Shown here in pieces: positions 1 through 8,002 of a stretch of 64,000 bases of DNA. Source of the DNA: a virus (taxonomy: Duplodnaviria > Caudoviricetes). Both the position numbers and the translations under genes were made by a program. The stretch's first letter is position 1. Each line of letters opens with the position of its first letter. The stretch lies in IMG/VR virus record IMGVR_UViG_3300035520_000529, positions 1 to 64,000 of that record; one strand, 5' to 3'. The notes below the pieces were generated by a model that searched no databases, was not told the origin of the DNA, and saw only the letters and a program-made list of their open reading frames with translations.

Positions 1-81
1 AACACATATCCAGTTAGGCTTTAACTCTAATATGAGAGTTCAACTCTACACATAGGATTGAATTTTGATATTAGAGTTAAA

Positions 82-114
82 GGAATGCACAGAACTCCTA
101 TAAGCTGTGCAGAA
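82..114 (+). promoter_or_regulatory. Conserved leader hairpin, copy 1
   Basis: GGAA-T-GCACAG-AACTCCTATAAG-CTGTGC-AGAA; stem ends 16 nt before ATG 127. Confidence 0.8.
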
Positions 115-126
115 TTGAGGTTATTT

Positions 127-669
127 ATGCATTACATATCTATTACTGACAAAGCAAAAATGCTACGTTCTGAAATCAAAAGCAAACTAGGACTCAACTG
201 CCGTGAGGTTAGTGTCACTACTAGTGGCGGTGGTTATGATTCCAGTATCCACGTGTATTTAAAGACCCTTAAAGCTATGACTCACTATCAAGAGGTTGAA
301 AAGTTAGCTTCTAAACTTGAACATATCGACTATGACCCTTACTGTGGTGAGGTTCTATGTGGTGGCAATACCTACGTAAATGTGGGTTGTGACCGCTCTG
401 TGCTAAGAGAATTTAGCACTAAATATCTTGAACTTGCTACTAAAGTTTACAACGAACTTACTGAGGAAACTGGTGGCAAATGTGTTCTAACTATCAATGG
501 TGTTGACTTTCATTACATTCCTAAAAGCATTTCTCATTGTTACATTAATGGTATGTGCTTTATAGACACTAATGAACGCTCTCACAAGATTAGAAGAATT
601 GCTAATTCTGTAGAAGATATAGCATTTTCTATGGGTCAGTTTGAGCTTTGCGGATATTTCTTCTGCTAA
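127..669 (+). CDS. Hypothetical early phage protein (possibly LPD-type polyvalent-associated domain)
   Basis: ORF 58..669; start moved to ATG 127 behind GAGG RBS and leader hairpin copy 1. Confidence 0.6.
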   Translation: MHYISITDKAKMLRSEIKSKLGLNCREVSVTTSGGGYDSSIHVYLKTLKAMTHYQEVEKLASKLEHIDYDPYCGEVLCGGNTYVNVGCDRSVLREFSTKYLELATKVYNELTEETGGKCVLTINGVDFHYIPKSISHCYINGMCFIDTNERSHKIRRIANSVEDIAFSMGQFELCGYFFC

Positions 670-695
670 GATTTTGATTTGTAAATTTGATTTTT

Positions 696-722
696 AACTT
701 GTACCCAACTCGGGTACAAGTT
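696..722. repeat. 27-bp palindrome, candidate parS copy 1
   Basis: AACTTGTACCC-AACTC-GGGTACAAGTT; related copies at 33930, 38473, 45619. Confidence 0.7.
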
Positions 723-730
723 CTTTAACT

Positions 731-1123
731 ATGAAAGGATTTGATTGTATGAAAAAGATTACTAAAAAAGAATTTATCGCTAAAATGGTAGCAAATGAGA
801 CCTACTTTGTGAATGTTCATAAGTATATTAACAAGCCTATTCAATCTAAACTTGAGTTTATCAACAACGAAATAGTTGAACACAAGCCTGACCTTAGCGT
901 TATGAAAACACGTACTTGTGTACAACGCTCTGCTTTTCTAGAGTTTTCCATGGGTAGTAGACTCTACTTTAATCAACAAGCAGATTACTCTTACTATGAG
1001 TTTGAAATCGATTCTCAAGAGTACCTAATCATGGTAGAAACTACTGACAATTCTAAAATTAGCACTAACTCTTGGGATGACGCTATAAGCTACTTTATGG
1101 TTTACGCTGTGAAAGGAGAATAG
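731..1123 (+). CDS. Hypothetical protein
   Basis: ORF; likely start ATG 749 after GAAAGGA. Confidence 0.65.
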   Translation: MKGFDCMKKITKKEFIAKMVANETYFVNVHKYINKPIQSKLEFINNEIVEHKPDLSVMKTRTCVQRSAFLEFSMGSRLYFNQQADYSYYEFEIDSQEYLIMVETTDNSKISTNSWDDAISYFMVYAVKGE

Positions 1124-1125
1124 TC

Positions 1126-1356
1126 ATGAGAAGATACAACATTGCACCATGCAACATTAACAAGGAGTTAGAAACCAAAACTGACTATCTAGTTTGGTTG
1201 CTATCTCAAACTATTAACACTATAAATAGCCTACCCATTGACGGCAGAGAACGTGGAGACTTAGTCTCCATGTACATGGCTAACCTACTAAATGGTATTT
1301 CCGATGACGATATACCTCGTCAAATCTATGACCAAACTATTGGACGTAGCATATAA
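1126..1356 (+). CDS. Hypothetical protein
   Basis: ORF with AAAGGAG RBS, coupled to upstream stop. Confidence 0.6.
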   Translation: MRRYNIAPCNINKELETKTDYLVWLLSQTINTINSLPIDGRERGDLVSMYMANLLNGISDDDIPRQIYDQTIGRSI

Positions 1357-1372
1357 GAAAGGAGTTTTTATT

Positions 1373-1954
1373 ATGACTAATACTAATGTTATCACTTTAA
1401 ACGCTATGGTGGACTATCTAAAGTCCACCTTAACTGAACCTACTCAGCAAGAGTTCACATCCGCTGATACATCCGTAAACAGAAACCGCCTACCTAAAGT
1501 ATTTTCTGCTATCAAGAGTTGGAAAGCAGATTCCATAAATCTTGACCTCGGTGGTGGTAAGTTTGACAACGCTACTGAGTACCTATACTCTCAATACGGC
1601 TGTACAAACCTCATATTTGATAGGTTTAACCGCTCTGTTGATTGGAATACTCAAATACTAAATTACGTCACACAAGTGGGTGGTGCTGACACCCTAACTT
1701 GTGCTAACGTTCTTAACGTCATTGCTGAAAGTGAAATCCGTTTGGAGGTTATCGCTCAAGCTTACGCTCTACTAAAAAGTGACGGCATTGCGTACTTTCA
1801 AATCTATGAGGGTAACGGCTCTGGAGTAGGTTCTCAAACTAAGATTGATTGTTGGCAAAACAACTTAAAGGCTAATGAGTATATATCCGAATTGGAAACG
1901 TATTTCAATATCGAAAAAGTCTCCAATAAGATTATCGTTTGCACTAAGAAATAG
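1373..1954 (+). CDS. Class I SAM-dependent methyltransferase, probably DNA-directed
   Basis: NLDLGGGKFD SAM motif, CANVLNVI, YFQIYEG; RBS GAAAGGAG before ATG 1373. Confidence 0.65.
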   Translation: MTNTNVITLNAMVDYLKSTLTEPTQQEFTSADTSVNRNRLPKVFSAIKSWKADSINLDLGGGKFDNATEYLYSQYGCTNLIFDRFNRSVDWNTQILNYVTQVGGADTLTCANVLNVIAESEIRLEVIAQAYALLKSDGIAYFQIYEGNGSGVGSQTKIDCWQNNLKANEYISELETYFNIEKVSNKIIVCTKK

Positions 1955-1968
1955 TTGGAGATGTAATT

Positions 1969-2553
1969 ATGAACATTAAAGAAGAAATTAAAAAATACAA
2001 TGAGGGTCTTACTCATACCATAGACATTGACGATATTCACACTATATTCAATTCTATTTTAGAAATATTCAAGGAATATCTTCCTATGCCCGAAAACATA
2101 TATCTTAGTGATAAACCACTAAATTCCGCTACTAGACTTGGTCAATGCAAAAAAGAAGTTTGGACTATGCCTAATGGTAAAGTGGTAAATTGTGTGTACA
2201 CCATATACGTTAATAAGTGTTATATTGGCGCTCCAATTACTAAAGAGGTATTTTTTGATTTGGTAAACGTTATTGGTCACGAACTACTACACACCATTGT
2301 GCAATCTCATGATGCTAACTTTACAAAGTTAGCTAATATGCTAAATCAGTATCTAGGTTTTAAAATTGAAGCACACTATACACCATCCGAAACTACAAAA
2401 CTCCTAAATACAGTTAAGCCTAAATACGAAATTAGGTGTTCAAAGTGCAATCAACTTTTGGGTTGGAAATATCACAAATGCAAAATGATTAGCCACAGTC
2501 AAGATTATACTTCTCAATGCTGTTACGCTGATATTAAAATTATAAACCTATAA
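1969..2553 (+). CDS. SprT-like zinc metallopeptidase
   Basis: LGQC, HELLH, HD..F and C-terminal YxxxCxxC zinc ribbon. Confidence 0.75.
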   Translation: MNIKEEIKKYNEGLTHTIDIDDIHTIFNSILEIFKEYLPMPENIYLSDKPLNSATRLGQCKKEVWTMPNGKVVNCVYTIYVNKCYIGAPITKEVFFDLVNVIGHELLHTIVQSHDANFTKLANMLNQYLGFKIEAHYTPSETTKLLNTVKPKYEIRCSKCNQLLGWKYHKCKMISHSQDYTSQCCYADIKIINL

Positions 2554-2564
2554 ATTAAATTCAA

Positions 2565-2597
2565 GGAACGTGGAGAACTCCTATAAACTCCACAGAA
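2565..2597 (+). promoter_or_regulatory. Conserved leader hairpin, copy 2
   Basis: GGAA-C-GTGGAG-AACTCCTATAAA-CTCCAC-AGAA; 17 nt before ATG 2611. Confidence 0.8.
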
Positions 2598-2610
2598 AGT
2601 GAGTATTACT

Positions 2611-2913
2611 ATGAAAATTACAGGTATTAAAAAGGCAGTAAGCGACTATAAAAGAGCAAATGCTGGTGGTTATTATAGCCCTAGTTATGGTAGAATGATG
2701 TTAAACCGCTCTACTGGAGAAGTATGGACAGATGAATTCTACTGTGTAGGTCATACTGATTGGAACAAATATGATGACCCTGCAATCATCAACATAGTTA
2801 CAGCTATGAATAATATAGCTTGTGATGCAGTTACAGTAACTATGCAATCAATAAAAAAAATTGCTGTAAAACTTTGTGAAGAATACGCTAAGAATAAAAC
2901 TAAAAATTCTTAG
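2611..2913 (+). CDS. Hypothetical protein
   Basis: ORF 2599..2913; ATG 2611 preferred. Confidence 0.65.
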   Translation: MKITGIKKAVSDYKRANAGGYYSPSYGRMMLNRSTGEVWTDEFYCVGHTDWNKYDDPAIINIVTAMNNIACDAVTVTMQSIKKIAVKLCEEYAKNKTKNS

Positions 2914-2928
2914 GATATTCAATAATCA

Positions 2929-2996
2929 ACTCGTTGGAGCGAGTATAAAAAGTCCGTTAGGCTCTAAGCGTTCCGCCCAATTGGGCGGAGGTCGGA
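2929..2996 (+). ncRNA. Pistol self-cleaving ribozyme A
   Basis: P1 ACUCG/CGAGU with loop UUGGAG; linker AUAAAAAG; P2 UCCG/CGGA; UUAGG; pseudoknot strand CUCUAA; GCGU; P3 UCCGCCC/GGGCGGA; GGU (predicted cut G2991/U2992). Confidence 0.9.
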
Positions 2997-3004
2997 AAAT
3001 TAAA

Positions 3005-3037
3005 GGAAAGCACAGAACTCCTTTAAACTGTGCAGAA
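3005..3037 (+). promoter_or_regulatory. Conserved leader hairpin, copy 3
   Basis: GGAA-A-GCACAG-AACTCCTTTAAA-CTGTGC-AGAA; 17 nt before ATG 3051. Confidence 0.8.
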
Positions 3038-3050
3038 AGTGAGTATCGTT

Positions 3051-3497
3051 ATGAATAAGGAAACTAAAGTTATCAATGCTATCAAGGTTTGCACTGATGG
3101 TAATATGTACCCAGTGAAGTTTAAGGAAAATTCCCTCGCTGATATGTACTCTTTGCTAAACTGTTCTAACATTGAGATTGTACACGCTATGCGTTTGAAT
3201 GGCTCTTTCTGCTTAGTCTGTGATGGAGAAGCACTATTGAAAGATTCTCCTCAAATTAACCTTTATGCAAGTTATCTATATGGCTCTGAACAACATAGGA
3301 ACTACATTTATGGAGATGTGCTAATCTGTAAAGAATACAACTTCGATGAGGATTTCGAGGACGATGAAGATGAATCCGACTTCCAATCTATGACACAAGA
3401 TGAGATTGATTACTATTTTCTACAGAAACTTTTCCTAGTTGGTAAGTTAAAAAGTTTTGCTGATGATACTGAACGTTGGCTAAAAGGACTCTTATAA
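3051..3497 (+). CDS. DUF3846-like protein
   Basis: L..MY.LLNC..IE.V, CDGE.LLK...IN..AS.LY, IYGDVLI pattern. Confidence 0.6.
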   Translation: MNKETKVINAIKVCTDGNMYPVKFKENSLADMYSLLNCSNIEIVHAMRLNGSFCLVCDGEALLKDSPQINLYASYLYGSEQHRNYIYGDVLICKEYNFDEDFEDDEDESDFQSMTQDEIDYYFLQKLFLVGKLKSFADDTERWLKGLL

Positions 3498-3511
3498 TCG
3501 CTAGTTTTTAG

Positions 3512-3540
3512 TTGACAAAATAGTATAAATTTACTATAAT
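3512..3540 (+). promoter_or_regulatory. Sigma-A promoter
   Basis: TTGACA-17-TATAAT. Confidence 0.8.
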
Positions 3541-3565
3541 ATAGCTATCAAAGGAGAGGTTTTTT

Positions 3566-4027
3566 ATGAAAAAAGTTGGATATTGTAAGTACGTTCACAA
3601 GTCAAACTTAGCTGAACTTTTAAATTCAGTTTCGGATTTAGAAAGAGAACCCATTAAAGAGCTGATTAGTCAGCATAGCACATACTGGAATTTTGAGGTG
3701 GTTAAGTACGATTCTAAGACTAAAAATCTCTCCTTAATTCAGTCTCTAAATTGGAATACTGCTAATGAGCCAACTGTTGGTGACAGTTTAATAATCAACA
3801 TAGTTACGTTGAAAATCTCTATTTCAAAAATGAAAACCCGTGAACAGATTTACCATCAAAAAGAACTTTTCGTGTCCGAAAACTACAGTGGTTTTGACGT
3901 TCAAAAGGCTAAGGCTAGGACTCAACTTTGGAAGTCAAAAATACAAAATCTTAGCCAACACAAAACTAGAATGGGTTATCGTTGGTACTGGAATGAATTG
4001 CTAGATATGTATAATATTGAGAAATAG
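3566..4027 (+). CDS. Protein resembling the accessory domain of phosphorothioation-associated methyltransferases (TIGR04096-like)
   Basis: YVHKS, VVKYD, EP.VGDS, IYHQKELFV..Y, RMG...W pattern; recognised from memory. Confidence 0.5.
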   Translation: MKKVGYCKYVHKSNLAELLNSVSDLEREPIKELISQHSTYWNFEVVKYDSKTKNLSLIQSLNWNTANEPTVGDSLIINIVTLKISISKMKTREQIYHQKELFVSENYSGFDVQKAKARTQLWKSKIQNLSQHKTRMGYRWYWNELLDMYNIEK

Positions 4028-4041
4028 TTTCCATTTTGCAC

Positions 4042-4070
4042 TTGATTTTTGTGCAAATTTATGGTACAAT
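4042..4070 (+). promoter_or_regulatory. Sigma-A promoter with TTTGCAC/GTGCAAA inverted repeat around the -35
   Basis: TTGATT-17-TACAAT, extended -10 TG. Confidence 0.6.
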
Positions 4071-4091
4071 ATTCTTAAATTTAACAGTTTT

Positions 4092-4124
4092 GGAACGTGG
4101 AGAACTCCTATAAACTCCACAGAA
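4092..4124 (+). promoter_or_regulatory. Conserved leader hairpin, copy 4
   Basis: GGAA-C-GTGGAG-AACTCCTATAAA-CTCCAC-AGAA; 17 nt before ATG 4138. Confidence 0.8.
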
Positions 4125-4137
4125 AAGGAGAATTGCC

Positions 4138-4455
4138 ATGAAAGAATTATTCGTTGTTGATGTGGATAACGGCGGTAGTATGTGGATTCCAGACGGCTCG
4201 GACATCTACGGAGACCTTATAGAAAACTATATCGAAGCTGAAAATGAGGATGCTGTCTTTAAGTACCTCGTGGACTACTTCATTAAGGGCAGTTCTGAGG
4301 TCGACTGGGGAGAAGATGGTATGCCCGATTATAAGGTCGACTACGCTAAAAAACGCATAGATTGGTGCGAAGATGAGTATCAATACCACTACATTTTTGA
4401 GATTGAACCCGTCTTTGAAGCAGACGAAAATATCCCTATAACTACCATCGACTAG
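4138..4455 (+). CDS. Small acidic hypothetical protein
   Basis: AAGGAG RBS; very D/E-rich (DNA-mimic-like composition). Confidence 0.7.
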   Translation: MKELFVVDVDNGGSMWIPDGSDIYGDLIENYIEAENEDAVFKYLVDYFIKGSSEVDWGEDGMPDYKVDYAKKRIDWCEDEYQYHYIFEIEPVFEADENIPITTID

Positions 4456-4519
4456 GCGATGTAAAATAGTCCATTAAGCCTAGTGCGTTACTCCATCCGC
4501 AGGGGTGGAGTAGGTTGGA
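4446..4519 (+). ncRNA. Pistol self-cleaving ribozyme B
   Basis: P1 CAUCG/CGAUG with loop ACUAGG; UAAAAUAG; P2 UCCA/UGGA; UUAAG; pseudoknot strand CCUAGU; GCGU; P3 UACUCCAUCC/GGGUGGAGUA; GGU (predicted cut G4514/U4515). Confidence 0.9.
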
Positions 4520-4566
4520 AAGCATATTTTTAACTCTATTTTACAAATTTTAAGGAGGTCTTTTTT

Positions 4567-6450
4567 ATGAAATTGAAAGACAAATTGAAGACTTTTTGGA
4601 TGAAAGCAATTCTCATATTTTGTTATATCCAAGGAGGCATTATAGTCATAATAGGTGGGTTGTTAACGGCAATCCTCCCTCTTGCACTGAATTTGGCAGG
4701 GTTTCCACTGGCTATTCACTGGATGGCAGACAACGTTTTTATTGGTGGAATTAAGGCTATTTTATATGTAGTTTTCATTGGAGTGGGTTCTGTTAAGTTC
4801 TTTTTAAACTTTGGTGAATCTGGAACTCCACCTTTTTGGAAGTATGTTGTTGGTGGCATTTGCAGTATATACGATAAACCCGTCAACAAATTGGAATATG
4901 AACTTCAAGTGCATAAAATTAGAGAAAAGAATAAACTCGATTATGACAAAGACTATGTAAATCCAAATAAAAAATTATCATTACTTGACAAAATAAAAAT
5001 ACATAAAAATAAAGAGATTTTTAACAGAGTATATGATAACTTTTTCCTAAGTTATGACAGCTATTTTCACATTCAGTGGGATAGGTTTGGCGACTCTAAC
5101 TCATGGTACAGATGTATGAATTACAAAGATTACAGACTTTCTTTGATTAAAAATCCATACGTTTCAGCAACCAAAAAATACAAAGAAAATAAGAAGTTGC
5201 TATTTATGGGTAAGTGTTATGGACTCGTTTCATCGCCACAAAACCCTTACAAGGATAACAAAGTTCATTCACAATACGATTTTGTTTTCTATGACCTTTA
5301 TCAAGAAAGTAAGCGTAAGCCAAACGTCTTCGCACAAAGCATTGAAAATAATGTTGATGGTGTACTATACGAGATTTTGGCAATGTTGCAAATAATATCT
5401 TGTAAAGATTTTGACGAGTATTTTTACTACAATTTACATTTTCCAATTACAAAAGATAATGTATTTGAACAAGCCGTTAATCAACAAATGGAAAATTTGC
5501 TCTTTTGGATGTATATTGACCAAGCAATGACTGTGGATTTTATTGACATTCATACGCTCCATATTGAAGATAGGTTCATTTTAATGATTAATCAGCTACA
5601 CAAAATGCACTTACTTTTCACTAACAATAACTTCATATCTTCTCAAAACTCGTTCGATTGCGACTTCCTTTATAACGAATTAGAAATTGGCGAGTACGAG
5701 CAATCCCTAATTGCTCTCGTTGAAAAAGTGCCTAAGATTGAGGAAAGCATAAAGAACCTACCTCACAAAGATAACGTCCCTTTGATGTTAGAAAAGTCGC
5801 AAATATGCTCTGATGTGTGGCTTGAATGGTATCAAAGCAAACGAAAAGACGAACTCTCCGAAAATAGTTTGTACCATGAAATTGCCGAAAGGTTCACATC
5901 TTCAATCTTTGACAAAAGTACATTTCTCACTGCCATCGTTGTAGAAGATACGAAAACTAAAAAAAGACAATTATATTTTGTTGGCGAAAAGATTCTTTTT
6001 ATGTTGGATTCAGATGAAAATAATAATGTTTTATATGATGAAATTCATTATACTATGGATACTTATCTTTATGAGCAAACCTCACACGAACGAGATTTGA
6101 ACACTATAAACGATGACCAAAAATTGAGAGAGTTTATTTTTAAGAAAGAAGTTCCAAAGCATATCTATAGCGACTTTAAAAGGGTTTGTACTTTTTTCAA
6201 CCCAAAGTATGTAAAGTTTATACATAACTTGGATAATCTAAACTATATGATTTCTAACGAGTATAAAGCAATTTGCCGTTATGAATTTCAAATGAGTTAT
6301 TCACGTTTCTTAGAAGATACGCAAAAAGAATTTAAGGAAACCATTGAAAGGTTTAGAGAAAAGTGTTTGAAAATGTATGCTAATTATGAAGAAATATATT
6401 TAGAAATTTACAATGAGGATAAAAACCAAAATGTAAACTCTGTAAATTAA
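4567..6450 (+). CDS. Hypothetical membrane-anchored protein
   Basis: AAGGAGG RBS; 2-3 hydrophobic N-terminal helices followed by a large soluble domain. Confidence 0.7.
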   Translation: MKLKDKLKTFWMKAILIFCYIQGGIIVIIGGLLTAILPLALNLAGFPLAIHWMADNVFIGGIKAILYVVFIGVGSVKFFLNFGESGTPPFWKYVVGGICSIYDKPVNKLEYELQVHKIREKNKLDYDKDYVNPNKKLSLLDKIKIHKNKEIFNRVYDNFFLSYDSYFHIQWDRFGDSNSWYRCMNYKDYRLSLIKNPYVSATKKYKENKKLLFMGKCYGLVSSPQNPYKDNKVHSQYDFVFYDLYQESKRKPNVFAQSIENNVDGVLYEILAMLQIISCKDFDEYFYYNLHFPITKDNVFEQAVNQQMENLLFWMYIDQAMTVDFIDIHTLHIEDRFILMINQLHKMHLLFTNNNFISSQNSFDCDFLYNELEIGEYEQSLIALVEKVPKIEESIKNLPHKDNVPLMLEKSQICSDVWLEWYQSKRKDELSENSLYHEIAERFTSSIFDKSTFLTAIVVEDTKTKKRQLYFVGEKILFMLDSDENNNVLYDEIHYTMDTYLYEQTSHERDLNTINDDQKLREFIFKKEVPKHIYSDFKRVCTFFNPKYVKFIHNLDNLNYMISNEYKAICRYEFQMSYSRFLEDTQKEFKETIERFREKCLKMYANYEEIYLEIYNEDKNQNVNSVN

Positions 6451-6464
6451 TAGGAGGTATTATC

Positions 6465-7337
6465 ATGAAAGAAATTAAAATGACTGTTATGGGAAACGTT
6501 GCTCTTGAGGAAACTTTTGAAAAGACACAAGAGCCTACTATCGAACCACAAAGCACAAATGTACGTCAGTTGAAGAGCAACTATATACATCGTAAATCCG
6601 ATGGTGCAGAGTACATCAAGCCTACAGCAGGTGACCCTATTAGGTCTAAGGCGGACTTAAAAGCCATCTACAAGTACTTTGAAGATGGCAGAAGTTCACA
6701 GATAGAAACTCTTAATGCACGTAATTACGCAATCTTTATCCTAGGAATATCCACTGGATTGAGAATCTCCGACTTGCTAAAAATTAAAGTCAGAGACATA
6801 ATCGACCTTAGAAAGCTTAACGCAGTTTTGAAGTCCAAACCTAAATCAAAAATCACTAAAGAGGACGATATTTTCGTGGATAGAATTTACATCTGCGAAC
6901 AGAAGACAGGTAAAATTAACAAACCAGTAATGTCAAAAAGGTGTAAAGTTTTGATATTTGACTATTTAAAGTTGGTAAAAAAAGAAGTAAAGCTTAGCTT
7001 TACTGACTACCTCTGGGTGGCTGGTGGAAATCGCACGAGCGTTAAGGTTGTGAGTAAGCCAATCGCCATGCAGAACTACTACGATGTGCTCAAAAAAATC
7101 TCAAACGAGATTGAGTTTGAAACTCCAACCCACCTATCTACGCACAGTATGAGGAAAACCTTTGGTTATTGGCTCTTCAAAAACGCATCTTCTCAAGCCG
7201 AAACTTTGGCGATTTTGCAAGAGTTGTTCAACCACAGCAACCAAAGGGTGACCCTAAGGTACATCGGTATCACTGAGGACACCAAGCTCAAAACCCTTGC
7301 TGAGTTCAGTAATCTGCTCGATGACATTTTAGAATAG
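6465..7337 (+). CDS. Tyrosine recombinase (integrase/resolvase)
   Basis: TGLRISD, EQKTGK, HSMRKT, FNHS, TLRYIG: complete R-K-H-R-H-Y set. Confidence 0.92.
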   Translation: MKEIKMTVMGNVALEETFEKTQEPTIEPQSTNVRQLKSNYIHRKSDGAEYIKPTAGDPIRSKADLKAIYKYFEDGRSSQIETLNARNYAIFILGISTGLRISDLLKIKVRDIIDLRKLNAVLKSKPKSKITKEDDIFVDRIYICEQKTGKINKPVMSKRCKVLIFDYLKLVKKEVKLSFTDYLWVAGGNRTSVKVVSKPIAMQNYYDVLKKISNEIEFETPTHLSTHSMRKTFGYWLFKNASSQAETLAILQELFNHSNQRVTLRYIGITEDTKLKTLAEFSNLLDDILE

Positions 7338-7415
7338 CTAACACGCTCGTATTCAAACGGAAATGGGTCAAAATCAAGCGTTAGTGGTTTACCCTTGAAA
7401 TCATACCCCTAAATT

Positions 7416-7451
7416 TAGAACCCTCATTTTGAGCAGATTTGGAGGGTTCTA
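7416..7451 (+). terminator. Hairpin downstream of the recombinase
   Basis: TAGAACCCTC/GAGGGTTCTA 10-bp stem, T-rich downstream. Confidence 0.45.
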
Positions 7452-7931
7452 GAGCATTTTGCTTTTTCAACAAGTATTTCCAACTAATGACAGCCCGCAA
7501 ACCACGATTCTAGCTCTATACCATTATAATATATATTTACTATCTTGAAAATTAATAAAAAACTAAAATATTAATTAAACATTAAGTATTACAAATTAGT
7601 GTATATATTAGTAAAATAATAAATATATTTTTGCAACTCTTTAATTTTCGCTCGAAAGCTTCGCATTCGAGCGATGCTGTCACACTAATCACACTAATTC
7701 AACCAATTACGTACTATCAATCACCAATTTTCGTTCCTAGCGAAGTAACTAATCATATCATCCATTCAAGCAATCGTTAAATCAATTCCCCATTTCATGA
7801 GGAAGTCTAGGTTTAAACGTGAGTTTTGGATGGGTAAACCACCAAAATTTCTACTCTCAAATTGGTTTCTCAATAAACCATAATTGGAATTAATATCTAA
7901 AATATTGTCAAGATGCTCTAACTCTAATCTC

Positions 7932-7960
7932 ATTATATCACATTTTATCTCTTTTGTCAA
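7932..7960 (-). promoter_or_regulatory. Consensus sigma-A promoter firing into an ORF-free region
   Basis: Minus-strand TTGACA-17-TATAAT with TG extension. Confidence 0.75.
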
Positions 7961-8002
7961 GTCTTTTTTAAAAATATTTTTATAAAAAGTTAGAAAAATG
8001 TC

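Follow-up and report, generated by a model that had tools for sequence, protein, structure and literature searches.

The window analysed here is the first 64 kb (64,000 nt) of a linear 108,209-nt IMG/VR contig from an uncultured gut phage, about 64% complete, and its first 4.5 kb carry two pistol self-cleaving ribozymes and four copies of a short hairpin leader, all on the coding strand of one co-directional block of genes. Each copy of the leader stands at a nearly constant distance from a start codon, its stem covaries, and it is found in related phages with and without a ribozyme. We propose that the ribozymes and the leader are two separate cis-acting layers of RNA on genes of early, establishment type: the pistols would cut read-through transcripts between cistrons, and the leader would belong to the translation-initiation region of a subset of the genes and also act as a recombination seam. 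We hold this two-layer account to be just on the probable side. The locus is an example of a known phage arrangement, and not a new system for capping RNA or making RNA circles.

Results

Pistol ribozymes

Two ribozymes of the pistol class (Weinberg et al., 2015; Harris et al., 2015, PMC4604425) were identified on the plus strand with the Rfam model (RF02679, gathering score 34.5), both aligned over its full length (model positions 1–68 of 68). Pistol A (2929–2996) scored 72.7 bits with no mispairs and starts 15 nt past the stop codon of a 100-amino-acid (aa) open reading frame (ORF); pistol B (4446–4519) scored 60.9 bits, and the stop codon of a 105-aa ORF falls within its P1 loop. Every model pair in P1, P2 and P3 of both ribozymes is a standard one with no mispair mark, and the pseudoknot of each, a six-nucleotide complementarity of the P1 loop with the P2–P3 junction, was read directly from the sequence. 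The Rfam model found no further pistol in the window or in the whole contig, in agreement with a previous sequence-only reading of this DNA, which had placed two pistols in the first 4.5 kb on the coding strand and none elsewhere.

The scissile bond of a pistol lies in the two-nucleotide junction, usually GU, that separates P3 from P2 (Harris et al., 2015, PMC4604425). Because the model alignment puts this junction at 2991–2992 and at 4514–4515, the cuts are predicted between G2991 and U2992 and between G4514 and U4515. The interval between them (2992–4514) is 1523 nt long and holds three ORFs (3051–3497, 3566–4027 and 4138–4455), so that the cut sites and interval given in the sequence-only reading agree with both the junction and the list of ORFs. 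The next start codon lies 59 nt past the cut of pistol A and 52 nt past that of pistol B (ATG at 4567); the 5′ region of the pistol B product is a plain 52 nt, with no leader or other hairpin. The two pistols share one orientation and bracket the three ORFs, integrase genes follow, and the ORF upstream of pistol A is not homologous to the ORF upstream of pistol B. Judged by their sequences, both are genuine pistols and, lying on the coding strand between genes, should cut read-through transcripts.

Pistols of other phages provided a comparison. A pattern for the pistol core matched 118 viral contigs (L150–L267), in which 43 sites, 36 of them distinct, also had P2, P3 and the GU junction. Past the cut, the first ORF with a ribosome-binding site began at a median distance of 44 nt (26–44 nt in 16 of 31), and the spacings of 59 and 52 nt in the window fit this ordinary placement, behind one gene and ahead of the next. 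In 13 of 31 families the 3′ product begins with a hairpin made of the released P2 strand and adjoining bases (shuffled sequences gave a mean of 5.3 and a maximum of 12 in 500 rounds). A hairpin of this kind would hide the new 5′-OH end and prevent re-pairing with the ribozyme; neither pistol of the window forms one.

The leader hairpin

The leader consists of a GGAA 5′ flank, a 6-bp stem, a nearly invariant 12-nt loop and an AGAA 3′ flank. The loop contains CUCCU, the core of the anti-Shine-Dalgarno sequence of 16S rRNA. A degenerate pattern matched four times, with GGAA at 82, 2565, 3005 and 4092, against 0.04 matches expected. With a covariance model built from six instances the window copies scored 60–68 bits and the next best match in the 108 kb scored 14 bits, which upholds the assertion that all four leaders lie in the first 4.5 kb and none elsewhere. 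Copy 1 (82–114; GGAA 82–85, stem 87–92/105–110, loop 93–104, AGAA 111–114; 60.1 bits) precedes the ATG at 127 with a gap of 16 nt from the end of the stem, and copies 2 (2565–2597; stem 2570–2575/2588–2593; 68.1 bits), 3 (3005–3037; stem 3010–3015/3028–3033; 62.6 bits) and 4 (4092–4124; stem 4097–4102/4115–4120; 60.0 bits) precede the ATGs at 2611, 3051 and 4138, each with a gap of 17 nt. All are on the plus strand, in one orientation, just before the ribosome-binding site, which is weak in three of the four genes concerned. Two haplotypes of the stem occur, with differences at three positions of each strand; three of the six stem pairs are compensatory, 100% of the cells are paired, and every slid control loses pairing. 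The predicted hairpin is weak, at about −8 to −11 kcal/mol.

Counting the copies in the two related phages described below, R1 and R2, the gap from stem to ATG is 17 nt in six of seven instances and 16 nt in the other, and it is constant despite divergence of about 45% in the ribosome-binding segment that lies within it; between copies 2 and 4 this segment differs at 6 of 13 positions, and there is a single 1-nt indel overall. The repeat units are 59 nt long and run through the start codon. Upstream, the context varies. Copy 1 follows a long stem and its first G (82) is the last paired base of that 64-nt hairpin; the GGAA of copy 3 lies 13 nt past the cut of pistol A; and that of copy 4 lies about 15 nt past the start implied by a promoter-like site at 4042–4070, all as the sequence-only reading had described them. 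Copy 2 begins 12 nt past the preceding stop codon with no ribozyme, stem or good promoter upstream, the sole promoter-like site nearby being a 9/12 match, which is at chance level. A ribozyme stands upstream of one leader in four, and a leader downstream of one ribozyme in two. As the gap to the ATG is fixed while the upstream context varies, the leader is tied to start codons and not to cut ends, and on these comparisons it is best read as a start-codon module and recombination seam rather than a cap for processed ends.

The leader appears to be confined to this group of phages. Rfam gave no match to it at E values up to 5 in positions 1–8000, where only the pistols were found. The exact degenerate pattern had no match in collections of viral or metagenome contigs, and a relaxed pattern had one chance match, in a coding region, among metagenome contigs and none among genome contigs. 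A scan of 1.03 Mb of other viral contigs that bear pistols, made with the covariance model, yielded no leader (best score 22.5 bits, with an unrelated loop). Two further identities for the hairpin were rejected, namely a split Shine-Dalgarno sequence in which the hairpin would bring GGAA near the ATG, since 17 nt still separate hairpin and ATG, and a preQ1-type or other riboswitch, which had no support from Rfam.

Related phages

Relatives were reached by two protein searches. R1 consists of two Logan contigs (L063 and L056), and R2 of 18.8 kb of a 32-kb contig (L057). Scanning the viral-contig collection singly with the DUF3846 protein, the 105-aa ORF or the DNA polymerase gave no relatives. 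The DUF3846 homologues are 89% (R2) and 85% identical to that of the window and each is preceded by a leader. R1 retains both pistols as well as leaders 2, 3 and 4, the last together with its promoter. Over the 124 nt from 2914 to 3037, comprising a spacer, pistol A and leader 3, there are 0 differences between the window and R1, and the adjoining ORFs differ at 6–15% of sites, those on either side of pistol A itself by 6–11%; this identity argues for constraint on the block or for its recent exchange. Pistol B of R1 (L056 332–405) scored only 29.1 bits, below the Rfam threshold. The damaging changes are five in number, all from G to A: two P1 pairs, one pseudoknot pair and one P3 pair are lost, and a G of high conservation is replaced. 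Two changes in P2 leave the bases paired as G-U, and the pattern looks like decay with a mutational bias.

In R2 there is only one leader (64.7 bits, with an additional loop U), before its DUF3846 gene, and no pistol within the 18.8 kb. Its unit runs from a terminator through a perfect promoter, a methyltransferase-like gene, the leader and the DUF3846 gene to a 153-aa ORF. No promoter-like site or ribozyme stands directly before the leader, and as the sole promoter of the unit is upstream of the first gene, the leader lies about 650 nt from the 5′ end of the message. The R2 leader combines the 5′ flank of window copy 2 with the 3′ flank of copy 3, and copy 4 of R1 bears a ribosome-binding segment of the copy 2 type. 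These hybrids indicate that the copies recombine and that the genes between them come and go. The early region of R2 (L057 1–18809) also has two families of near-identical consensus promoters, of 12 and 6 members, with a conserved leader particular to each family, and a RAGATH-18 RNA (2394–2468, 76.6 bits) just downstream of a gene of IS605 OrfB/TnpB type (1279–2340).

Metatranscriptome evidence

Contigs assembled from four gut metatranscriptome runs cover parts of the stretch, and the gaps between them are uninformative on expression. A 193-nt contig of run X2 (record 11, depth 3.7) reads 4352–4514 and then 4352–4381 again. The repeated 30 nt are the signature of a closed path at a word size of 31, here around the 163-nt segment 4352–4514; a second X2 contig stops at 4381, where it should if two different bases can precede base 4352, and no word of the run crosses from 4514 to 4515. 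Since the end of this RNA path coincides with the predicted bond, it supports cleavage by pistol B in that sample.

The joint of 4514 to 4352 is open to several explanations. It could be a ligation of the cyclic-phosphate end to a 5′-OH end, or it could reflect template switching by reverse transcriptase onto an RNA ending in GG; base 4352 belongs to six consecutive A that make up two lysine codons in the 105-aa ORF, and at a depth of 3.7 one fragment read from both ends could account for it. That the pistol B end was joined in the cell to a 5′-OH end 163 nt upstream is improbable in our judgement. The product would be a small circular RNA with the whole ribozyme and without its substrate strand, so that it could not re-open itself. 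If this were true, a natural circular RNA, of the kind sought in vain in 2011, would for the first time have been traced to a self-cleaving ribozyme encoded by a phage, and phage ribozymes would be linked with RNA-repair ligation in bacteria. A look-up with the 33-aa fragment that an RNA starting at 4352 would encode found nothing on record.

At the other end of the block, RNA contigs from two runs share an end at base 82, where the long hairpin before copy 1 has its foot, and may mark an RNA terminus there. These runs carry an A37G variant by which an A-U pair becomes G-U and pairing is kept. The X2 contigs diverge from the window by 6% over 2680–3294 and by about 1% over 4201–4514, which suggests that run X2 holds either several strains or a mosaic relative.

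Genes and setting of the region

The block opens with this long imperfect hairpin (19–82, plus strand, as are all features of this section), which has 15 perfect base pairs at its foot and about 28 in all (−30.4 kcal/mol, z = −9.0, none of 200 shuffles as good) and is a possible site for a double-strand RNase or a possible protector of a 3′ end. Leader 1 serves a 180-aa ORF (127–669) resembling the LPD29 polyvalent-protein domain (Atlas feature score 0.92, TM 0.67–0.70 to LPD29 clusters), which we treat as a lead only. It is followed by a tentative terminator-like hairpin of 11 bp with a T-rich tail (696–727), seen by folding and missed by a consensus scan. A 194-aa ORF (1969–2553), absent from R2, may encode a SprT-like zinc protease, to judge by its HExxH motif and a C-terminal part rich in cysteine, though Pfam gave no confirmation. 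The 100-aa ORF (2611–2913) between leader 2 and pistol A has no family match.

The gene behind pistol A and leader 3 (3051–3497) belongs to DUF3846 (PF12957, E = 4.6e-12) and has a leader in front in all three phage strains. It is followed by a sigma-70-type promoter-like site (3512–3540, TTGACA-17-TATAAT, 12/12) within the 1523-nt interval; this site lies in a segment of about 45 nt (within 3498–3565) that is missing from R1 and R2, and it looks like a recent insertion between two cistrons. Next come the 153-aa ORF (3566–4027), with a strong ribosome-binding site and no leader, the promoter-like site before leader 4 (4042–4070), which has an extended −10 element and is kept in R1 (L063 1405–1440), where it is closer to consensus, and the very acidic 105-aa ORF (4138–4455), with no homologue outside this phage group. 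Downstream of pistol B are a 627-aa ORF (4567–6450) and then a tyrosine integrase gene. The neighbours of leader-bearing genes include a methyltransferase-like protein and the HExxH protein. By analogy, the gene set resembles the early or leading regions of mobile elements, and the label ‘early’ is used here in that inferred sense.

The window has a G+C content of 33% and encodes integrases, a DnaB-type helicase, a RecJ-like nuclease, a DNA polymerase and an anaerobic ribonucleotide reductase. A DNA search with its first 4.7 kb found no match among 50,697 phage records; the closest catalogued polymerases are 39% identical and come from phages of Bacillus, Paenibacillus and Staphylococcus. The NrdD protein is 61–64% identical to those of gut Clostridia and of Gastranaerophilales genomes alike and favours neither, so that the host may be either. 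The runs that bear the sequence are gut metatranscriptomes, and as their RNA contigs reach up to 198 nt upstream of base 1, the viral contig is truncated at its 5′ end.

Discussion

In the two-layer account, each pistol, standing just after a short ORF, would leave the upstream message with the whole folded ribozyme and a 2′,3′-cyclic phosphate at its 3′ end, and the downstream message would begin with a 5′-OH and a short leader. The cut would uncouple the fate of neighbouring cistrons, as proposed for clustered prophage ribozymes. The repeated hairpin would act separately. Its covarying stem would present the CUCCU loop with the stem ending 16–17 nt before the ATG, at what would be the 5′ edge of the 30S footprint, and it is most likely operator-like: binding of one trans-acting factor, or anti-Shine-Dalgarno-like pairing of the loop with the purine tract, might set the translation or stability of the genes jointly. 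Copies so alike could in addition serve as seams at which gene cassettes are swapped.

Several observations weigh against this account. No candidate for a trans-acting factor was found, the neighbours being DUF3846, LPD29-like or orphan proteins, and the 108 kb hold no antisense partner for the loop beyond ordinary ribosome-binding sites. The loop and flanks are invariant, so that covariation cannot test pairings between them, and copy 4 of the window loses the fourth pair of the 5′-flank pairing without compensation. With only two stem haplotypes the three compensatory pairs may be a single event, and the constant spacing may partly reflect recent duplication of the 59-nt cassette. For the pistols, the evidence from RNA consists of low-depth assembled contigs from one run; contigs cross the cuts uncut in run X1 at pistol B and in run X3 at pistol A, and may represent precursor or DNA; and the degenerate copy in R1 (29.1 bits) indicates that pistol B is under no strong constraint.

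Another explanation, that of the sequence-only reading, is that the transcript is cut into pieces and that the leader protects or regulates each new 5′ end, for example against a 5′-to-3′ exonuclease of the RNase J1 type. Such an enzyme attacks 5′-OH ends, as with the product of the glmS ribozyme in Bacillus. The positions of copies 3 and 4, whose GGAA follows the cut of pistol A by 13 nt and the start of a conserved promoter by about 15 nt, respectively, suit this proposal, as do the long stem that copy 1 abuts, with RNA contigs of two runs ending at 82, and the conservation of pistol A and leader 3 as one 124-nt block; the purine tract before the hairpin also recalls the 5′ stabilizers of Bacillus. 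However, neither copy 2 nor the R2 copy is preceded by a ribozyme, a stem or a credible promoter, and the latter lies about 650 nt into its message. The product of pistol B has neither leader nor other 5′ hairpin, the leader hairpin is weak, with 18–20 nt between the putative ends and its start, and it is the spacing to the ATG that is held more tightly constant. In addition, the 5′ hairpin seen on 13 of 31 other pistol products, formed from the P2 strand, is made by neither pistol here. What stands of that reading is the cutting: the ribozymes are genuine and one RNA contig ends at 4514. Its protected 5′ ends do not, with one leader in four after a ribozyme, one ribozyme in two before a leader and an internal leader in R2, and we consider a cap role unlikely. 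Its extension, that both pistols cut and an RtcB-type ligase closes the released 1523-nt RNA (2992–4514) into a circular message of three genes, is to our mind barely credible. Pistol cleavage leaves a 5′-OH and a 2′,3′-cyclic phosphate, so that the ends are chemically compatible, and one RNA contig joins the pistol B 3′ end to an upstream base, so joining there may occur; but the joint observed is 4514 to 4352, and that of 4514 to 2992 was not seen in the four RNA runs. Two promoter-like sites would start transcripts within the interval, and one RNA contig crosses pistol A uncut. The search for rtcB in the rest of the genome gave no match to an RtcB or RNA-ligase family (PF01139, PF09414) in the 108 kb, although this contig is about 64% complete and a host enzyme is possible. 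Circular products of ribozyme-flanked prophage genes have also been sought previously and none were found (Perreault et al., 2011, PMC3088659).

It is also conceivable that the leader has no function as RNA and is a duplicated cassette boundary or recombination scar that has persisted through gene shuffling. Phages of the T4 type carry repeated promoter-stem-loop cassettes, the 59-nt units here extend through the start codon, the hybrid leaders of R1 and R2 show exchange at the copies, and the motif is limited to three closely related strains. A scar would not be expected to keep three compensatory stem pairs with 100% pairing, an invariant and asymmetric loop, zero differences in leader 3 amid diverged flanks, and a single orientation, with every copy on the coding strand and immediately ahead of a ribosome-binding site; we regard it as improbable. 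The inverted repeat might instead serve in the DNA as the operator at which a dimeric repressor controls early promoters, since its 6-bp arms, 12 bp apart, resemble two half-sites and copy 4 is just downstream of a promoter. This is most improbable, as the arms differ at three positions yet stay complementary, which preserves a hairpin and not a half-site; the conserved part is the asymmetric centre; every copy has the same orientation relative to the genes; and three of the four copies are not beside a credible promoter.

Prophage genes flanked by ribozymes, in that case hammerheads, were described in 2011, when processing, splicing and circularization were raised as roles and circles were not detected (Perreault et al., 2011, PMC3088659). 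As in those clusters, several ribozymes of one orientation flank single genes or short blocks of variable identity, which include genes of anti-restriction type, and integrase genes are nearby. The present locus differs in having two ribozymes only, both pistols, interleaved with a repeated start-codon hairpin, and in that one metatranscriptome contig ends at a predicted cut. The leader itself can be compared with the start-associated sequences (SAS and ESAS) of Cluster K mycobacteriophages, elements of unknown function that are suspected of binding a factor of the host or the phage (Pope et al., 2011, PMC3203893). Both are lineage-specific repeats of one orientation that lie a few nucleotides from the starts of some non-structural genes of different families. 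However, the 13 nt of SAS take up the ribosome-binding site itself, and the inverted repeats there show no RNA covariation, whereas the leader forms a hairpin that covaries, lies ahead of the ribosome-binding site and bears an anti-Shine-Dalgarno-like loop, and the sequences are unrelated.

Other parallels are found outside ribozyme clusters and repeat families. The polycistronic early transcript of T7 is cut between cistrons by RNase III at structured sites. There, as would be the case here, the structure remains on the 3′ end of the upstream fragment; at the present locus the RNA would cut itself, leaving a 5′-OH and a cyclic phosphate in place of the 5′-phosphate and 3′-OH of T7, and only the modelled 19–82 stem resembles a site for a double-strand nuclease. 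Hairpin operators beside ribosome-binding sites are known from the threonyl-tRNA synthetase gene, from Com-mom of phage Mu and from the coat-replicase junction of MS2. The leader is like them in its conserved loop, its stem that is free to vary, its place at the edge of the 30S binding site and a loop that mimics another RNA, and as in a translational operator its position relative to the ribosome-binding site is fixed (seven of seven instances) and three of six pairs show compensatory changes. It shares no sequence similarity with these operators, is carried by several unrelated genes, and would have a cognate protein that is hypothetical. In the 5′ stabilizers of Bacillus, such as the polypurine element of SP82 and the STAB-SD of cryIIIA, structure and a Shine-Dalgarno-like tract rich in purines are found near a processed 5′ end, as would be the case for some copies of the leader; in two instances, however, no 5′ end lies near the leader, and its purine tract is no more than GGAA-centred.

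The natural role of pistol ribozymes is still open, and this locus offers a compact test bed for it, with a strongly conserved pistol A and a decaying pistol B in one operon, a relative, R2, without both, and public RNA data that already point to a predicted pistol cut. An apparent ribozyme-linked cap is here better read as a start-codon module, and this example guards against over-interpreting similar loci elsewhere.

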